Assembly: GCA_965237905.1 (NCBI GenBank)
Contig: OZ250172.1
Coordinates: 1,216,001-1,280,000, forward strand
Direction of reading: 5' to 3'
From: Nitrospinaceae bacterium
GTDB lineage: Bacteria; Nitrospinota; Nitrospinia; Nitrospinales; Nitrospinaceae
DNA length: 64,000 nt
The notes under the pieces are model-generated. The model saw only the letters and a list, made by a program, of their open reading frames with translations, was not told the DNA's origin and did no database searches. Positions 38,239 through 49,505 of this stretch are shown here, one piece after another. Every line of letters begins with the position of its first letter. Position 1 is the first letter of the stretch. The position numbers and the translations under genes are program-made.

Positions 38239-39372
38239 CTACGCCATTTCACACAGCTTGTCAGGAGAGGAAATCACCGTGGAACTCGGTACATTTTTTT
38301 TCGGGGATTTCTCGGTCGGCTGAGGATACCGGAATACCTTGCCTTCAAAGTTTCGAACCATGATTTCGCGATCGTTATACTCCACCACCGTATCGGGCAA
38401 TAGCCGGACCTTACCACCGCCGCCCGGGGTATCGATCACAAAATAAGGCACACCCATGCCGGAAGTGTGACCCTGCAATCCACGGATGATCTCAAGTCCC
38501 TTTTCAATTCTAGTCCGAAAATGGTCCGTCCCCACCGTCATATCCGCCTGGTACAGGTAATACGGCTTGATGCGAATCTTGAGCAGTTTGTGCACCAGCT
38601 CCTTCATGATCTCCACGTCGTCATTCACCCCTTTGAGCAGAACCGTCTGACTGCCCAGCGGAATACCGGCGTCGGCCATTCGGTTGCAGGCCAGTTCCAC
38701 CTCCGGCGTGATTTCAGCAGGATGATTGAAATGCAGGTTGGCGTAAAGCGGATGAAATTTTTTCAGCATCTCACACAAAGCGGGGGTGACGCGTTCCGGC
38801 AACGTGCCGGGAACACGGGTCCCGATACGGATAATTTCCAGATGCGGTATCTCCCGGAGCGCCCCCAGGATGCGTTCCAACTCCTTGTCGGGCACCAGCA
38901 GAGGATCGCCGCCGGACATGATCACGTCGCGTATCTCCGGATGCTGTGCAATATATTCGATGCCCTGGCGCAAGGTTTCGCGGGTGACGATCCCCGGAAA
39001 ACCGATTTTGCGTTTGCGGGTGCAAAACCGGCAAATGACCGGACACTGATTGTTCAGCATCAACAACACGCGGTCGGGATAGCGGTGGACCAGTTCGGGA
39101 ACGGGCATGTCCTCTTCTTCATTGAGAGGATCGGTATCCAAAGATTCTTCAGCGCTTAAAAAATCATCCAGCTCTTCGGCAGTGGGCACCACCTGCTTCC
39201 ACAAAGGATCGTTCTCTTCCTTGATCTGATTCAGAAAATAAGAATTAATCCGAATCGGGAAAATCTCCGAAACCTTCTGGAGCTTTTCCATGTATTCTTT
39301 GGATCCGGATACAAAGGGCAGGTCTTCCACTTTTACGACACTATCGCTCAGTTGTTTTTGCCAGCGCTCCAT
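38239..39372 (-). CDS. KamA-family radical SAM aminomutase (lysine 2,3-aminomutase-like)
   Basis: LVHRYPDRVL, CPVICRFCTRKR, SGGDPL, IRIGTR, HFNHP, SQTVLLKGVND, PYYLYQ, DTPGGGGK with the PLP lysine. Confidence 0.93.
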   Translation of the reverse strand: MERWQKQLSDSVVKVEDLPFVSGSKEYMEKLQKVSEIFPIRINSYFLNQIKEENDPLWKQVVPTAEELDDFLSAEESLDTDPLNEEEDMPVPELVHRYPDRVLLMLNNQCPVICRFCTRKRKIGFPGIVTRETLRQGIEYIAQHPEIRDVIMSGGDPLLVPDKELERILGALREIPHLEIIRIGTRVPGTLPERVTPALCEMLKKFHPLYANLHFNHPAEITPEVELACNRMADAGIPLGSQTVLLKGVNDDVEIMKELVHKLLKIRIKPYYLYQADMTVGTDHFRTRIEKGLEIIRGLQGHTSGMGVPYFVIDTPGGGGKVRLLPDTVVEYNDREIMVRNFEGKVFRYPQPTEKSPKKNVPSSTVISSPDKLCEMA

Positions 39373-39392
39373 ATTGAACCTTTATATGTAAA

Positions 39393-39632
39393 TTAGGATG
39401 AGATGGAATAGGTCTTTTTGAGATGGTCAATGATGTCATACTCGTCGTCGAGCACCACGTCGCCATCGACCAGGACCGGGACAGTGGTTTGACCGGATAC
39501 TTCGTGGACTTCTTTCCTTAAATGGTGAGGCCAGGGGACGTCGATTTTTTCATACTCGATTTTAAGGTTCGCCAAAACTTCCCGCACCATGGCGCAATAA
39601 CCGCATCCGTCAATATTATAAAGTTTCATCAT
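39393..39632 (-). CDS. Glutaredoxin-like protein
   Basis: CGYC active site, SGQTTVPVLVD cis-Pro motif. Confidence 0.88.
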   Translation of the reverse strand: MMKLYNIDGCGYCAMVREVLANLKIEYEKIDVPWPHHLRKEVHEVSGQTTVPVLVDGDVVLDDEYDIIDHLKKTYSISS

Positions 39633-39635
39633 CGT

Positions 39636-41051
39636 TTAAGCTTGGCTCTCCAGCCCGGTCGCACAAGGCACCATGACTGCATCCACCATTCCATGAATTT
39701 TCTTTTTGTCGTGCGGGCACAGGGTAGCCAGAATACCTCCCAGCCGCGCCTGATTCTCCACCACAAAATAATAGGGCGTCAACCGCGCCCGACTCTCCAT
39801 GGTATCCATGGATTGCGTTTTTGAATTCCAGAAAGCGGCTTCGATCCGCTTGCCTTTGTGAAATTCCTGTAAAACATAGGGCTGATACGGAAACTCCGCG
39901 AGCGCCCGATCCAGGGTCTTGCCCCAATCCTCACTCGACACGTCATGCCCCATCACCACCCCCCGGCTCCCCCACGCTTCCGGAGAAAATCCCGAGGGCT
40001 TGATCACCAATTCCCGCTCTTTCTGAGTCAGGGAATACAGGTCCTGCCATTCATTGATAGGATTCCCTTTGATCCTCAAATTGGGAATCACCGCATGGGG
40101 GGGCAACGGACGGTTGTCCAACACCCATGTGTTTGGAATTAGATGAGCCAAGAGCGCAAAGGTTTCAACTCCCAGCGCTTTTTCCCACCAGGAAATGAGC
40201 GCCGGATGGTGCAACAGGGCAAAACTCAGCTTTTCTTCCAGATGCGGCTTGTAGGGCGGGGTAGTCCGAACGCGGCCCTTTTTATTGCTGAACATCAATA
40301 ATTCCACTTTGGGAATGTTTTTCAGATCAAACAACTCATAAAACCGGTACAGCACCTCGATGGGCACCTCCCGTCCCGCATCCATGACAAACAATCCCTC
40401 TTCCTTGAACAGAATCTCGCGCGGATGCACCACATAAACGGGTAAACCCCTCTTTTTCAGAATGTCTCCCAGGAAAACCATTTCGCTCCAGTAATCCCGA
40501 GCCTCATCGGAAACAACAATGGCGGTGGCACACTCTTTCTCTCCGGCGACGGATTCGACCATTTGATAAAACAGCGAAGGAATGCCGCCCTCCGCCGATC
40601 CGATAATTTTCCGGTCGTCCCGGGCATAGAGGTTCATCAATTGCGAAGTGAGTCCGAAGCCCCCGGGCACCGCATCCAGTTCCGTCACAGCAAATCCATC
40701 TTCCTTGACAATCACATCAGGTCGAATGATGCCCGGAAGCTGGGATTTGAACCGCTTCATGCGGCTGTATTCCACCAACTCAGCGGGCTTGCCCCGGTCC
40801 ATGTAGTCGGCCACCCAGGCAGGCACCCTGCCCTTCACACTGTCGAAATACAATTGATTGAGCGCGGAATAAAATTTCAAAAGATGCTGGCCGAGGTCCT
40901 GAAAAAAAGCCGCATCATTGGGAGACAGGTGAAACGGATCGGGAGAAATGCGCCAGGTGTTGTCGCCGTCGTCCGCCTGTGGGGAATACAGGCCGGACTC
41001 CATCAATGAGTTCTGAATATCGGCGCAAATGTGATCGGGGCTGGCAATCAT
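39636..41051 (-). CDS. Uncharacterised GspS / circularly permuted ATP-grasp-like amide ligase
   Basis: IRPDVI...TELDAVPGGFG, LYRFYELFD, EEKLSFALL, VIKPSG..WGSRGV, YVLQEF resemble motifs of the glutathionylspermidine/glutathione synthase ATP-grasp fold. Confidence 0.65.
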   Translation of the reverse strand: MIASPDHICADIQNSLMESGLYSPQADDGDNTWRISPDPFHLSPNDAAFFQDLGQHLLKFYSALNQLYFDSVKGRVPAWVADYMDRGKPAELVEYSRMKRFKSQLPGIIRPDVIVKEDGFAVTELDAVPGGFGLTSQLMNLYARDDRKIIGSAEGGIPSLFYQMVESVAGEKECATAIVVSDEARDYWSEMVFLGDILKKRGLPVYVVHPREILFKEEGLFVMDAGREVPIEVLYRFYELFDLKNIPKVELLMFSNKKGRVRTTPPYKPHLEEKLSFALLHHPALISWWEKALGVETFALLAHLIPNTWVLDNRPLPPHAVIPNLRIKGNPINEWQDLYSLTQKERELVIKPSGFSPEAWGSRGVVMGHDVSSEDWGKTLDRALAEFPYQPYVLQEFHKGKRIEAAFWNSKTQSMDTMESRARLTPYYFVVENQARLGGILATLCPHDKKKIHGMVDAVMVPCATGLESQA

Positions 41052-41256
41052 AGTTTCAGGTTAACATGAATGAGTCAACGAGTCAGGGGAAACGGGTCTG
41101 TCCTGTCTTATAAGGATGCAGGCTTCGCTATAAAGTTGCAGAAAACGACAACCCTCTTTGCTCACAACACCACTAGCTCCCTCGGGGATAAAACCTTTCA
41201 TGTGCCGTATCAAACAATGCTATAATCCGAGGCATTATAACGTAATTGAGGCCCTC

Positions 41257-41946
41257 GTGAAAAATCCTGACCGGCCCCCGACATCTCTGAAAACCATCGC
41301 GCTGTTCCCCCTGCCCAATTCCATTTTTTATCCCGGCACCGTTCTGCCGCTCCATATTTTTGAGGACCGCTACCGGCAAATGGTGGGCGACGCCATCGAC
41401 TCCGGCCAATGGATCGGCATGGTGCTCCTGCAACCGGGATATGAAGAAGAATACGAAGGATCGCCGGACATCAACCCCGTCGGCTGTGCCGGAAGCCTCG
41501 AACAATGGAACAAACACGACGATGGCAAATACGATATCGTCCTGCGCGGGCAAAGCCGGTTCCGCATCGTCCGCGAAGTGGGGGACACCCTCTACCGCCA
41601 GGCCGAAGTCGAATTGCTAAACAACGTCAGCGATCAACCCATCGACCCTACCGCCGACTTGTACAAACAATTGATCGGGAAATTCCACGCCTTCACCAGT
41701 CAACTGCCGCTCGACAACGCGCAGAAAGTGGAAATGGACATGCAGGATTGTAAAACATTGGGAGAGGCAGTCGACCGCGTCGCCTACTTTTTCGATCAGC
41801 CCTTGAACGACCGGCAACATTTCCTGGAAGAACGGGACGTGATCAAACGCTGCCAGCAAGTCCACGAACTGATCGACCTCAAACAACGCATCGTCCAGCA
41901 GTCCTCCATCTTCTCCAAAAAAGGCATCGACTCCCGTCTCAATTAA
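41257..41946 (+). CDS. Lon protease N-terminal substrate-binding domain protein
   Basis: LFPLPNSIFYPGTVLPLHIFEDRYRQM, DGKYDIVLRGQSRF; extended -10 TGCTATAAT at 41218-41226 supports GTG 41257. Confidence 0.88.
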   Translation: MKNPDRPPTSLKTIALFPLPNSIFYPGTVLPLHIFEDRYRQMVGDAIDSGQWIGMVLLQPGYEEEYEGSPDINPVGCAGSLEQWNKHDDGKYDIVLRGQSRFRIVREVGDTLYRQAEVELLNNVSDQPIDPTADLYKQLIGKFHAFTSQLPLDNAQKVEMDMQDCKTLGEAVDRVAYFFDQPLNDRQHFLEERDVIKRCQQVHELIDLKQRIVQQSSIFSKKGIDSRLN

Positions 41947-41961: not shown

Positions 41962-43578
41962 TTAAATCCGTCCCGCCATGCCGCCGTAGGCGATGCCGGT
42001 GAGATCGGCCATGTCTTTTTTCCAGGCGGTGAGGTCGCCTGCATTGAACTGGTTGAGGTGAGTGTGACCGCAGGCCCGCGCCAGGACTTTCATCAACTCC
42101 ACCGACGCGTTAAAAAAATTACCGAGCTGTTGGGAGGATTTCTCCATATCCAACCGTTGCCGCAGATGTTCTTTCTGGGTGGCAATGCCCACCGGGCAAT
42201 TGTTGGTATGGCACGCCCGCATGCCGATACAACCGATCGCCTGGATCGCCGCGTTGGAAATGGCAATGGCATCGGCGCCCAGAGCCAGCGCTTTTGCGAA
42301 GTCGGCGGGGACCCGCAGACCACCGGTGATGACCAGCGTGATGTCCTTGCGGTCCAGCCGGTCCAGATAATGCCGCGCGCGTGCCAGGGCCGGAATGGTG
42401 GGAACGGAAATGTTATCGCGAAACAGGAGCGGCGCGGCACCGGTACCCCCGCCGCGTCCGTCCAAAATAATGTAATCGACGCCCACTTCCAACGCCGCGT
42501 CGATGTCGTCTTCAATATGCTGGGCCGACAATTTGTAGCCGATGGGAATCCCACCCGTCGCTTCGCGCACTTCGGCAGCGAATGCCTTGATGGGTTGAAT
42601 GTCTTTCCAGTCCGGAAACCGCGGAGGAGACACCGCTGGTTCGCCTTCTTTGAGACCGCGCACCTGGGCGATCTTACCCTTCACTTTTTCACCCGGCAGG
42701 TGACCGCCGGTTCCGGTCTTCGCGCCCTGCCCGCCCTTGAAGTGAAACGCCTGACACCGTTGAATCTTGTCCATGGAATACCCGAACCGGCCCGACGCCA
42801 GCTCATAAAAATAGCGGCTGTTGGCCGCCTGCTCTTCGGGCAACATCCCGCCTTCGCCACTGCAGATGCCGGTCCCCGCCTGCTCCGCACCCATCGCCAG
42901 TGCCACCTTGGCTTCTTCCGACAACGCACCGAAACTCATGTCCGACACGAATAGCGGAATTTTCAGCGTCAGCGGTTTCTTGGCGTTGGGACCAATGACC
43001 ACTTCCGTGCCTACCGGGTCATCGTCCAACAAAGGCACCGTGGCCAACTGAGCGGTCACAAACTGAATGTCATCCCACAAAGGAAGCTCGTCGCGCGGCA
43101 CCCCCATCGCCGCAACACTGCCGTGATGCCCCAGCTTCGATAACCCCTCTTTCGCCAACTGCTGGATAAAATGGTTGTGCGGCTCTGCATCGGTGCCCCC
43201 GGTATCGGCATACAGCCCGAGATAGGCGTTGCGGTCAAATGGTTGCGGATGCTCTTTTGCCCATTCAGCGATCTCCTCTTCATCCACAAACACGGCTCGG
43301 TTCTCCAACCATGAGGAAAATTTGGGGAGCACTTCTTCGTGGCTGTACTCGCTGACGCCGGTGTCGTACCGGAAATCCCATCTATGAACGCCGCAAATCA
43401 AATTGGTTCCGGACACAAACCCGTCGCTCAACAACGCACCTCGGTGCGGACAGCGGCCATAGAATACGGAAACCTCTTTGTCATACCTGACGATCACCAG
43501 GTCCACATTCGACACCAGCGCATACGCCGGCACCCGGTCTTTAAGAGCGCTCCACTGCGCCACTTCCACTTTTTGCAT
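41962..43578 (-). CDS. Rieske [2Fe-2S] domain fused to an FMN-binding glutamate-synthase-like domain
   Basis: CPHRG...CGVHRW Rieske ligands; MSFGALS, SGEGG, GQGAKTGTGGHLPG, DGRGGGTGAAP, CIGMRACHTNNCPVG. Confidence 0.9.
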   Translation of the reverse strand: MQKVEVAQWSALKDRVPAYALVSNVDLVIVRYDKEVSVFYGRCPHRGALLSDGFVSGTNLICGVHRWDFRYDTGVSEYSHEEVLPKFSSWLENRAVFVDEEEIAEWAKEHPQPFDRNAYLGLYADTGGTDAEPHNHFIQQLAKEGLSKLGHHGSVAAMGVPRDELPLWDDIQFVTAQLATVPLLDDDPVGTEVVIGPNAKKPLTLKIPLFVSDMSFGALSEEAKVALAMGAEQAGTGICSGEGGMLPEEQAANSRYFYELASGRFGYSMDKIQRCQAFHFKGGQGAKTGTGGHLPGEKVKGKIAQVRGLKEGEPAVSPPRFPDWKDIQPIKAFAAEVREATGGIPIGYKLSAQHIEDDIDAALEVGVDYIILDGRGGGTGAAPLLFRDNISVPTIPALARARHYLDRLDRKDITLVITGGLRVPADFAKALALGADAIAISNAAIQAIGCIGMRACHTNNCPVGIATQKEHLRQRLDMEKSSQQLGNFFNASVELMKVLARACGHTHLNQFNAGDLTAWKKDMADLTGIAYGGMAGRI

Positions 43579-47470: not shown

Positions 47471-48196
47471 TCAAACACTAACAGGCGATGCTTCCGGCAT
47501 TTCGTCCCAGGTTCGACCCTCAAGCTCTCGGCCGGCTTTTTTCTTCTGGACGCCACCCCATTGCTTGAAGAAGAATGGGACACCTTGTTTTTCACATTGA
47601 TTTTTGATTCCCAAGACCCATTCTTCTTTCATAGGCCGGGCTCCGGGACCGCTTTCCCCGCCAACAATGACCCAATCGATTTTCTTCAAGCTGAACCGGC
47701 CTATGGGCCCGAGCAACGGCTCGACGGATAAAAACCGCACGTTGGCTGGAACCTTCCTGAGATGATTGACCCGCCACAGAGTATCCCGGTTTTCGACGGA
47801 AACCCCCATCCACACGTTTTTGGGCCAGTTCAGTTTGGGAGCTAACTCTTCCAGGCGCTCCGCTCGCTTGGTCAACACTTGAAAAATATGCCAGTCAGCC
47901 TTGGCCATTACCTCAAATACCTCTTGGATATAAGCTAAGGGCACTTCTTCATGAAACAGATCACTCATGCTGTTGACGAAAATGGTGCGCGATTTTTTCC
48001 ATAAAAGCGGCTGCTCCAGACGCTTGGGCCAAAGCTTAAGGTCAAACCCCTGCTCATAGGGATGCCCCGGTATACCCCGCCACCGCTCGGCAAAGGTTTC
48101 GGCATAACAGTGCGCACAACCCGGACTGATTTTGGTACACCCCGTCACCGGATTCCACGTCGAATCCGTCCATTCAATTGTGGAGTTTTGACTCAC
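47471..48196 (-). CDS. DUF5131 / phage Gp37-Gp68 family radical-SAM-like protein
   Basis: IEWTDSTWNPVTGCTKISPGCAHCYAE, IFVNSMSDLFH, FQVLTKR, WMGVSVE, FLSVEPLLGP, WVIVGGESG, FFFKQWGG. Confidence 0.93.
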   Translation of the reverse strand: MSQNSTIEWTDSTWNPVTGCTKISPGCAHCYAETFAERWRGIPGHPYEQGFDLKLWPKRLEQPLLWKKSRTIFVNSMSDLFHEEVPLAYIQEVFEVMAKADWHIFQVLTKRAERLEELAPKLNWPKNVWMGVSVENRDTLWRVNHLRKVPANVRFLSVEPLLGPIGRFSLKKIDWVIVGGESGPGARPMKEEWVLGIKNQCEKQGVPFFFKQWGGVQKKKAGRELEGRTWDEMPEASPVSV

Positions 48197-48353
48197 AACT
48201 CTATAATTTTCAATAAATTAAAAGATTTAATCTTGTTTAACATTAATAATAGCATTATAGCTGAAAAATTTAACATGATAAAGATATTGCCCTATAATTC
48301 AATTCGGCAACCCAATATGATGCCCAATTTTACTTTTACAAAACTTCGATCTT

Positions 48354-49505
48354 ATGAAACCTGCTGATTATTACAAAGGAAGAGAACAAACCTATTTAAA
48401 GCACTTTTTCTTAGAACATTATTTAGAAAAGGTGGCTCATAAAGTAGGCTTTTATAATCCCAATTTTACGTATGTTGACGGATTTTCAGGTCCCTGGAAA
48501 TCAGAAGATGAAGATTACCAAGATACTTCTTTTGGGATCGCTTTAAATCAATTGCGGATTGCAAGAAAGAATCTTGAAGCACACAAAAGGTATTTAAATT
48601 TAAAATGCCTTTTTATTGAAAAGGGACGGAAAGCCTATCAAGAATTGGAAAAGCAGATCAAAAGTGTGGATGACTTGGAAGCAAAATCCATTCATGGCCG
48701 CTTCGAGGACCTAATACCTGAAATTAAAAATTTTATCGGAAATTCTTTTTCTTTCACATTTATTGATCCCACAGGTTGGACCGGTTTTGCGCTTAATAAA
48801 ATTCAACCCATCTTATTAAACCAAGGAGAGGTTTTAATTAATTTCATGTTTGGTTTTATAAATCGCTTCATAAATTTTCAAGACCAAAAAAATATCGAAA
48901 CTTTTAATAATTTATTTGGAAGCTCGGACTGGAGGGATGAATTAGAAATCGAAATAGCTGGCGGAAAGTCTGACGAGGAGGCCATTTTAACTATTTATTT
49001 AAATCGATTAAAGAAAATTGGAAATTATCCTTTTGTGACTTATACCAAGATATTAAAACCTATTACGGAAAAATCTTTTTTTCATTTAATTTATGGAACC
49101 CGAAATTTGGAAGGACTCAAAGTTTTTAGTAAGATCGAAGAAAAATTATTTAAAGAACAAACGTTTGTCCGAGGTGAAGCTAAACAAAGAAAGCGGGTTG
49201 AAAAAACCGGTCAAGGGGAATTATTTGGATCCGATTTCTTGTCTGAGAATTCCAGACTACTGATTAACGACCGAAATAACAATTTACAAAACGCTGAAAT
49301 TGATCTAAGAAAATTTATTTCAGAGAAAAAATCAATTAAAGGCCAAGAAGTTTTGGGTAGATTTTTAGAGTATCCTTTTGTTTGGGAAAACGATATTAAT
49401 GAGTGGGTAATTAAGAAACTTAAGAAATCAGGTTCGATTGAAATCCCTAATATGAGCCTTCGAGAGCGAACTTTAAAACCTCATCATCAAATTTTAAAAA
49501 AATAA
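48354..49505 (+). CDS. tcmP: Three-Cys-motif partner protein TcmP (methyltransferase-like fold)
   Basis: QTYLKHFFLEHYL, YVDGFSGPW, FIEK, FTFIDPTG, EVLINFM, FHLIYGTRN; adjacent to DUF5131; strongly AT-rich. Confidence 0.85.
   Translation: MKPADYYKGREQTYLKHFFLEHYLEKVAHKVGFYNPNFTYVDGFSGPWKSEDEDYQDTSFGIALNQLRIARKNLEAHKRYLNLKCLFIEKGRKAYQELEKQIKSVDDLEAKSIHGRFEDLIPEIKNFIGNSFSFTFIDPTGWTGFALNKIQPILLNQGEVLINFMFGFINRFINFQDQKNIETFNNLFGSSDWRDELEIEIAGGKSDEEAILTIYLNRLKKIGNYPFVTYTKILKPITEKSFFHLIYGTRNLEGLKVFSKIEEKLFKEQTFVRGEAKQRKRVEKTGQGELFGSDFLSENSRLLINDRNNNLQNAEIDLRKFISEKKSIKGQEVLGRFLEYPFVWENDINEWVIKKLKKSGSIEIPNMSLRERTLKPHHQILKK

Follow-up and report, generated by a model that had tools for sequence, protein, structure and literature searches.

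A conserved trio of ATP-grasp ligase, glutaredoxin and aminomutase genes in Nitrospinaceae, and the case for a beta-lysyl thiol

Two kinds of described systems are close to the locus considered here. In the EpmA/EpmB system, beta-lysine comes from an aminomutase and is placed on an amine by a ligase. Other ligases have a circularly permuted ATP-grasp fold; among these, homoglutathione synthetase takes a beta-amino acid as its acceptor, while in Cp1B, substitution of R139, D141, E163 and N165 abolished or reduced activity (both from the portions of PMC12568646 drawn on here). The locus lies in a 64,000-nucleotide stretch of DNA (contig OZ250172.1, positions 1,216,001 to 1,280,000; here called the window) from a Nitrospinaceae-type genome (G000) of 3.09 Mb, a single contig that is 96% complete. 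There, three open reading frames (ORFs) on the minus strand encode a ligase, a glutaredoxin and an aminomutase.

The first (39636-41051) encodes an unnamed ligase of 471 amino acids, whose model has the circularly permuted ATP-grasp fold of glutathione synthetase, GspS and YgiC. After a gap of 3 nucleotides comes a dithiol glutaredoxin-like protein of 79 amino acids (39393-39632), recognized by its Pfam matches and by CGYC, SGQ, TVP and D63. After 20 nucleotides more comes a KamA-type radical S-adenosylmethionine and pyridoxal phosphate (PLP) 2,3-aminomutase of 377 amino acids (38239-39372), predicted from TIGR00238 and from alignment to PDB entry 2a5h to be a lysine 2,3-aminomutase. A sequence-only reading of the window had described these genes and gaps, and every motif that it listed was found again: RPD 110, TELD 123, PGG 129, VIKP 349, GSRGV 361 and LQEF 394 in the ligase, CGYC in the small protein, and CxxxCxxC at 110 and PGGGGK at 316 in KamA. 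Likewise, none of the usual partners of KamA (efp, epmA, ablB, kamDE) stands among the flanking genes scanned.

The trio is real, conserved and undescribed. A literature search found no description of it, or of beta-lysine paired with an ATP-grasp ligase, in sources other than the subscription journals and supplements that may hold one. The reading that we prefer, to which we assign a probability of about 0.5, is that beta-lysine is joined to cysteine, or to a cysteine-containing dipeptide, to give a cationic low-molecular-weight thiol used in place of glutathione. It is, of course, much likelier that the product is some beta-lysyl amide than that it is this specific thiol; the broader statement is very probably correct.

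The ligase and the aminomutase

By sequence, the ligase stands apart. Sequence and profile searches found no match to it in Pfam, NCBIfam or the PDB (no Pfam family at E 0.1); this holds for the glutathione synthetase profiles PF03199 and PF03917 as well as for PF03738, the profile of GspS, YgiC and YjfC. A distant homolog (P0267) gave a weak match to PF03738, below the cut-off, and profile comparisons of the ligase with YgiC and GspS from E. coli were not significant (E 0.08 and 0.12). The family is large, with at least 5,082 homologs found when 8,000 candidates were scored (1,041 at 50% clustering). Relatives in phages, plasmids or viral contigs were not found, and a viral origin was therefore dropped. 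Fusions were also sought, and none of 20 long homologs carried an informative domain.

Structure tells more. In the features of a protein language model, the ligase lies beside clusters of circularly permuted ATP-grasp enzymes, glutathione synthases and GspS. An AlphaFold2 model built from 32 sequences has a mean predicted local distance difference test score (pLDDT) of 91, and Foldseek matches it to human, plant and yeast glutathione synthetases (best E 1e-16, for the human enzyme), with homoglutathione synthetase the third match. By VIA-align, the model is closest to YgiC (Z 26.0, root-mean-square deviation 3.4, 342 residues aligned), Cp1B (Z 25.0) and GspS (Z 24.6); the ten top rows have Z of 21-26, and classical ATP-grasps reach at most 8.6. 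The fold of the large ORF had been set as a check on the sequence-only reading, and here Foldseek and VIA-align agree. As modelled, the ligase has a circularly permuted three-domain ATP-grasp fold of the glutathione synthetase/GspS type.

Within this fold, R110, D112, E124 and D126 correspond by motif to the four Cp1B residues named above. Among 64 diverse homologs they are conserved in 64, 64, 63 and 62 cases, so that the family has Asp126 where the superfamily motif, E-x-N, has Asn. A set of acidic residues is conserved nearly as well (E183 in 61, E190 in 62, E239 in 60, D242 in 58), and R423 and H453 are invariant in all 64. The residues that bind the gamma-glutamyl carboxylate appear, in motifs aligned by eye to human glutathione synthetase without superposition, to be replaced by F237 and E190. 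These positions, with A442, match what we take to be R267, Q220 and R450 of the human enzyme, respectively. This replacement suggests an acidic donor pocket that would fit a free amine, and beta-lysine would have about the length of gamma-Glu-Cys.

The aminomutase passes the general family model (TIGR00238, 304 bits against a cut-off of 199) and has both the cluster cysteines C110, C114 and C117 and the PLP lysine K321. Among the equivalog models, it scores highest for lysine (TIGR03820, 434 bits), then for glutamate (385), arginine (332) and EpmB (246). It falls below the cut-offs for TIGR03820 (525) and EpmB (369), and is a shorter protein that does not have the C-terminal zinc cysteines. 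It aligns to the Clostridium subterminale enzyme 2a5h at E 4e-114, R119, D277, D314 and K321 falling on R134, D293, D330 and K337. We take R134, D293 and D330 to be substrate residues, the two Asp binding the side-chain amine of lysine and differing in the glutamate enzyme. These residues speak strongly for lysine as the substrate. Because KamA keeps both acidic residues, beta-lysine is favoured over beta-glutamate as its product; arginine as a substrate would also be compatible with the sequence.

The phylogeny of KamA was another check set for the sequence-only reading. In a tree made by a quick method, with long branches flagged, KamA lies far from the EpmB of E. coli and does not group with it; in addition, the window genome has no epmA over the cut-off, and its EF-P (elongation factor P) has Asn34. 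The same tree, with a motif table, has at least four KamA clades that adjoin the ligase, each with both Asp residues. One might, of course, hold that the genes are unrelated neighbours, or that the aminomutase acts on arginine or glutamate. That KamA passes no equivalog cut-off, with glutamate at 385 and arginine at 332 against 434 for lysine, would agree with this. The two lysine-binding Asp residues, the repeated recruitment of different KamA clades, and the joint loss of unlinked genes described below all argue against it, and we consider it most improbable.

A second KamA-like gene of the window genome (C1:2450257-2451423, outside the window) was excluded as a candidate; it has neither the two Asp residues nor PGGGGK. 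It is 34% identical to the first, and most Nitrospinales have a second KamA match of similar score. The ORFs upstream of it are presumably threonine dehydrogenase- and 2-amino-3-ketobutyrate CoA ligase-like.

Conservation of the trio and joint loss of its parts

Sixty-six Nitrospinota-type loci were fetched. The trio is intact in every one of the 58 whose DNA extends 500 bp or more downstream of the ligase, which means that the arrangement is not chance; its co-conservation, a third check on the sequence-only reading, is thus confirmed. Of 101 other genomes of the order, 96 have the ligase. Outside the order, a ligase search in 18 genomes gave one weak match, to a different permuted ATP-grasp. 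In metagenome loci from outside Nitrospinales with downstream DNA (n=60), KamA is present in 37, and KamA with glutaredoxin in 28; many of these loci are close kin of one another, probably from Nitrospira.

The glutaredoxin is the looser part. An adjacent glutaredoxin gene occurs in two arrangements, with different KamA clades, and many lineages keep the ligase and KamA without one. The three-part operon proposed from the sequence stands, with one correction, namely that the glutaredoxin is no obligatory part of it. Four loci, from Proteobacteria and Acidobacteria, have a DedA membrane protein fusion as their third gene, where others have glutaredoxin (L066:6685-7902, L067:6731-7990, L069:6726-7937, L070:6641-7933; 22 homologs). 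The domain fused to DedA is probably a permuted NlpC/P60 amidase or acyltransferase, a lead drawn from weak scores; a single-sequence model of it had a pLDDT of 47 and was not used for fold search.

Several further genes recur at these loci. The DedA fusion genes lie next to KamA and the ligase or between the two, a few near integrase-like genes, and L066 has, in addition, a divergent cyclodipeptide synthase and an SSF transporter. A fusion of a CxxCxxCC motif with LPG_synthase_C (MprF-type) is divergent from the ligase in L156 (5019-6524) and in 24 similar Nitrospira-like loci. A tandem dCTP-deaminase-like gene lies 3' of KamA in Nitrospira-like loci. An RlmI-like 23S rRNA methyltransferase gene is the neighbour of KamA in three genomes, which belong to two phyla, and of the ligase in one (L376, L387, L090, L243).

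The two enzyme genes are unlinked in Verrucomicrobiota and Poribacteria. In Verrucomicrobiota, the ligase is present in 58 of 201 genomes; KamA lies within 1.5 kb of it in none of 30 loci fetched, and yet all 58 genomes have a KamA match elsewhere (one of them fragmentary). Weighing against the force of this is the fact that KamA-family genes are common anyway, being found in 121 of the 143 ligase-less Verrucomicrobiota. Many of these are probably EpmB, since efp adjoins epmA in 12 of 20 such genomes fetched.

One ligase-rich lineage of Verrucomicrobiota (64 genomes; grouping inferred from sampling order and checked by a recA tree of 30) gives a cleaner test. Both genes are present in 53 of its genomes, neither in 11, and one alone in none. 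On the recA tree the double-negatives interleave with the positives: G154 is sister to G253 (support 93), and G226 and G271 stand beside G229. This suggests more than one loss of the pair, with several forks open. At the sites themselves, comparison with G310 shows that G175 and G187 keep the genes on either side of KamA but not KamA itself, while G154 and G187 have the sigma-factor gene that marks the ligase site, with no ligase upstream of it; in the ligase-site comparison, G175 ends at a contig edge, and G226 and G271 gave no sigma match. Both genes are kept in two genomes of only 0.9 Mb.

Poribacteria follow the same pattern. The ligase is found in 56 of 61 genomes, all 56 having KamA; of the five without the ligase, three have no KamA either and two have KamA only. 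Across the two phyla, a KamA match thus accompanies the ligase in 114 of 114 genomes, a count in which related genomes are not independent and many genomes are incomplete. This pattern of joint presence and joint loss leads us to regard beta-lysine as very probably a substrate of the ligase.

The acceptor: thiol, amide or protein

If beta-lysine is the substrate, to what is it joined? One possibility is a protein, the ligase being a non-orthologous replacement of EpmA that places beta-lysine on EF-P or on another protein. EpmA exceeds the cut-off in 5 of 26 ligase-less genomes and in none of the 42 that bear the ligase, as if the two enzymes were mutually exclusive. In the window genome, the best genX match is a lysyl-tRNA synthetase-type ORF of 504 amino acids, below the cut-off. 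The retention of both genes in 0.9-Mb genomes, and near housekeeping genes, would also fit such a replacement, and a modification is known for only about half of bacterial EF-Ps, according to the part of PMC11388002 consulted.

The EF-P proteins themselves speak otherwise. In the window genome, the EF-P has the loop PGNKR, with Asn at position 34; of 31 ligase-bearing genomes, 18 have Asn at this position, 8 have Arg and just 5 have Lys. The loop does not differ between sister genomes that have the ligase and KamA and those that have neither, and no efp adjoins the ligase in the loci clustered. An apparent Arg-Thr loop signature of ligase-bearing genomes was considered and set aside, since it is unchanged in the double-negative sisters, and we put it down to ancestry. 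Modification of EF-P by the trio is unlikely, and an EpmA replacement acting on any protein is improbable. More generally, EF-P loops are unusually varied in Verrucomicrobiota and Nitrospinales (PGNK, PGNL, QGRQ, PPRM, PPNN), mostly without Lys34 and without epmA (L249-L278, L309-L337).

The case for a thiol begins with what these genomes do not have. Profile searches of the window genome for GCS2, Glu_cys_ligase, GshB and BshC gave no match, positive controls for the first two having responded; PF08886 GshA was also not found, in a search whose positive control was silent. Glutathione and bacillithiol synthesis were likewise not found in the ligase-bearing genomes tested. BshC is present in none of seven ligase-bearing genomes, against two of three Poribacteria that have neither ligase nor KamA.

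The glutaredoxins carry the second line of evidence. The operon glutaredoxin matches Pfam Glutaredoxin (7e-14) and GST_N_3 (1e-13, the only such match in the genome), and has the CxxC and the cis-Pro TVP motif of a dithiol glutaredoxin. In glutaredoxins, the GG motif holds the gamma-glutamyl carboxylate of glutathione. Its participation in glutathione binding is described in the part of PMC4765768 used here. In the operon protein, this motif is replaced by DD, the acidic D63 standing at the GG/ES site; of 93 homologs, 69 have D at the second position and 24 have E. The monothiol Grx4 of the window genome (C1:2570438-2570767, outside the window) departs from CGFS and GGCD, reading CGFT and GDTD. 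The GD of the GDTD type recurs in 120 of its 120 closest homologs, against GGCD in all five solved homologs among the matches listed. Across ligase-bearing genomes, Asp occupies the GG-motif position in 25 of 29 best glutaredoxin matches and in 10 of 10 more, Grx3-type proteins included. In the ligase-less Poribacteria G370 and G326, the best match has Gly at this place but belongs to another glutaredoxin subfamily, and the best match in G330 ends before the site.

The missing thiol genes, the GD of Grx4, the Asp of the other glutaredoxins and the complementary pattern of BshC together point to a thiol product, and a low-molecular-weight thiol is the best-supported product of the trio. Cysteine as the acceptor, with a redox role for the product, we put at about even odds. 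The sequence-only reading had proposed that a beta-amino acid is conjugated to a thiol, amine or protein acceptor; conjugation is supported, the ATP-grasp fold, the recurrence of the trio and the separation of KamA from EpmB all agreeing with it, and the options narrow, with beta-lysine favoured and a thiol best supported.

Two observations on glutaredoxins stand beside this argument. Close to the Grx4 gene, in this genome where glutathione synthesis was not detected, stands an iron-sulfur carrier-like ORF. Verrucomicrobiota and Poribacteria share a family of monothiol glutaredoxins with CGWS, which even the 0.9-Mb genomes keep (L471, L475, L478, L479, L489-L494, L497, L498). The mere presence of a glutaredoxin was tried as a marker and is uninformative, since 72 of 76 genomes have a PF00462 match.

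A number of points weigh against a thiol. An acidic residue at the GG site is normal for GST-N-type proteins, the operon glutaredoxin included, so that only the Grx3- and Grx4-type cases discriminate; moreover, the contrast drawn is with solved homologs and ligase-less Poribacteria. In five genomes with ligase and KamA (G139, G166, G229, G253, G310), as in their double-negative relatives, no glutaredoxin matches strongly. G029 has weak partial matches to GCS2 and GshB. The double-negative Poribacteria G370 has no BshC match, and the two BshC carriers may be close kin; the double-negative side of this contrast consists of Poribacteria. Finally, YgiC, the closest structure by Z-score, is annotated as a peptide-spermidine ligase, and a polyamine acceptor is therefore equally compatible with the fold.

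This last point leads to a different product, a beta-lysyl amide that is not a thiol: a beta-lysyl-polyamine, an oligo-beta-lysine, an osmolyte dipeptide, or an aminolipid or envelope head group. The glutaredoxin would then be a bystander, or the keeper of the oxygen-sensitive cluster of KamA. YgiC and GspS, both with spermidine acceptors, are in the top three folds; the DedA fusion with its probable NlpC/P60 domain replaces glutaredoxin in four loci; 25 metagenome loci have the MprF-type LPG_synthase_C gene running divergently; and ligase-less Nitrospinota pair KamA with D-Ala-D-Ala-ligase-like ATP-grasp genes. An amidase partner, however, would serve equally well for the breakdown of thiol conjugates, as in the bifunctional GspS. 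A non-thiol product also leaves unexplained why Asp replaces Gly in unlinked Grx3- and Grx4-type glutaredoxins, and why BshC shows a complementary pattern. We regard it as possible, if rather unlikely.

Yet another arrangement keeps the thiol and reverses the roles. Here, beta-lysine would be the acceptor, as beta-alanine is in homoglutathione, and some acyl-cysteine would be the donor. The third place of homoglutathione synthetase among the Foldseek matches speaks for this. Against it are the acidic donor pocket of the ligase and the failure to find a gamma-glutamyl-cysteine ligase (GCS2, Glu_cys_ligase) in the window genome; the glutaredoxin change, which by the geometry that we assume lies at the N-acyl end of the thiol, also counts against it. 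Such a reversal is quite improbable.

The beta-lysyl thiol pathway that we prefer would run as follows. KamA would convert L-lysine to beta-lysine, a step that we infer strongly. The ligase, with Mg-ATP, would form beta-lysyl-phosphate, the side-chain amine held in the acidic pocket; beta-lysine as an acyl donor by way of an acyl-phosphate has moderate support. Cysteine or a Cys-dipeptide would then attack, to give a cationic thiol resistant to peptidases, a step on which we would bet neither way. The beta-amino acyl bond would protect the cysteine from peptidases much as the gamma-glutamyl bond does in glutathione, and glutaredoxins would use the thiol for disulfide reduction and for handling iron-sulfur clusters. 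Somewhat more tentatively, beta-lysyl-cysteine or beta-Lys-Cys-X may be a new redox thiol class shared by Nitrospinales, Nitrospira-like bacteria, Poribacteria and one large lineage of Verrucomicrobiota, with glutaredoxins, Grx4 among them, remodelled for its cationic end.

If this is true, a family of 5,082 proteins or more, so far without annotation, would gain a function, and there would be an explanation for the lysine aminomutase of many genomes that neither lysylate EF-P nor ferment lysine. It would also bear on how the main marine nitrite oxidisers handle oxidative stress. For Verrucomicrobia and other major lineages, no low-molecular-weight thiol has been documented or predicted, as far as the cited part of PMC6282198 goes. 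The module is near-universal in the sampled Nitrospinales and Poribacteria and common in Verrucomicrobiota, and its product would serve groups for which no protective thiol is known.

Setting of the locus and comparison with known systems

About 180 nucleotides upstream of the ligase, on the minus strand, a sigma-70-like site (41234..41263, 10 of 12 matches) may be the operon promoter; the region scanned has four promoter-like sites where 3.0 are expected, so that this one does not stand above chance. The upstream neighbour is a divergent gene with a stand-alone LON substrate-binding (LON-N) domain (41158-41946), which is divergent from the operon in most Nitrospinales loci; downstream, a DUF502 gene follows that has a promoter-like site to itself. 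These, and flagellar neighbours, were rejected as functional partners, being local synteny only. Farther out, a fusion of a Rieske domain with a flavin mononucleotide glutamate-synthase domain (41962-43578) occupies its spot in the closest relatives only. A low-GC pair (about 40%) at 47471-49505, a radical S-adenosylmethionine-type ORF and a second ORF, is probably an acquired module; we take the two to be a DUF5131-like protein and a three-Cys-motif partner-like protein.

How, then, does the trio compare with what is known? With EpmA/EpmB, it shares the scheme of an aminomutase step followed by a ligase step. EpmA, however, is a lysyl-tRNA-synthetase paralog and is not found in ligase-bearing genomes; KamA is not EpmB, and EF-P in the window genome has Asn34. 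With AblA/AblB, which make N-epsilon-acetyl-beta-lysine, it shares a KamA of the AblA type, but the operon has no acetyltransferase. A likewise similar pairing of KamA with an ATP-grasp is seen in ligase-less Nitrospinota and one member of Verrucomicrobiota (L393, L397, L399, L401), where KamA stands with one or two D-Ala-D-Ala-ligase-like ATP-grasp genes, some with a GNAT gene. Those belong to a different branch of the ATP-grasp superfamily, and their sequences suggest a second, unrelated cluster for beta-lysine ligation.

Among enzymes of the same fold, YgiC/YjfC and GspS (7uka, 7uk6, 2io7) are among the best by Z-score, and some relatives of the ligase are paired with a papain-like amidase domain, as GspS is. 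The ligase, in contrast, is 11-12% identical to them, and has no fused amidase and no ygiB partner. Cp1B (9cjn), of E-64 biosynthesis, has the same fold and the same four catalytic positions, and is an example of this fold coupling one small acid to an L-amino acid; it belongs to fungal secondary metabolism and has E-x-N where the ligase family has E-x-D. The eukaryote-type glutathione and homoglutathione synthetases (8fbz, 2hgs, 1m0w, 5oes, 3kal) share the permuted fold over the full length, with a template modelling score of about 0.6, and motifs of the R-x-D and E-x-N types. From these, the ligase differs in its identity of 13-15%, in having no Pfam match, in its coupling to KamA, and in a genome where no gamma-glutamyl-cysteine ligase was found.

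The predicted product would resemble glutathione, gamma-Glu-Cys, bacillithiol and mycothiol in presenting a cysteine on a protective amide, served by dedicated redoxins; we know of none of these with a beta-amino acyl cap. By the tests run, the trio falls outside the glutathione synthetase, GspS and EpmAB families, and, by analogy, its pathway would resemble a glutathione pathway of one step.

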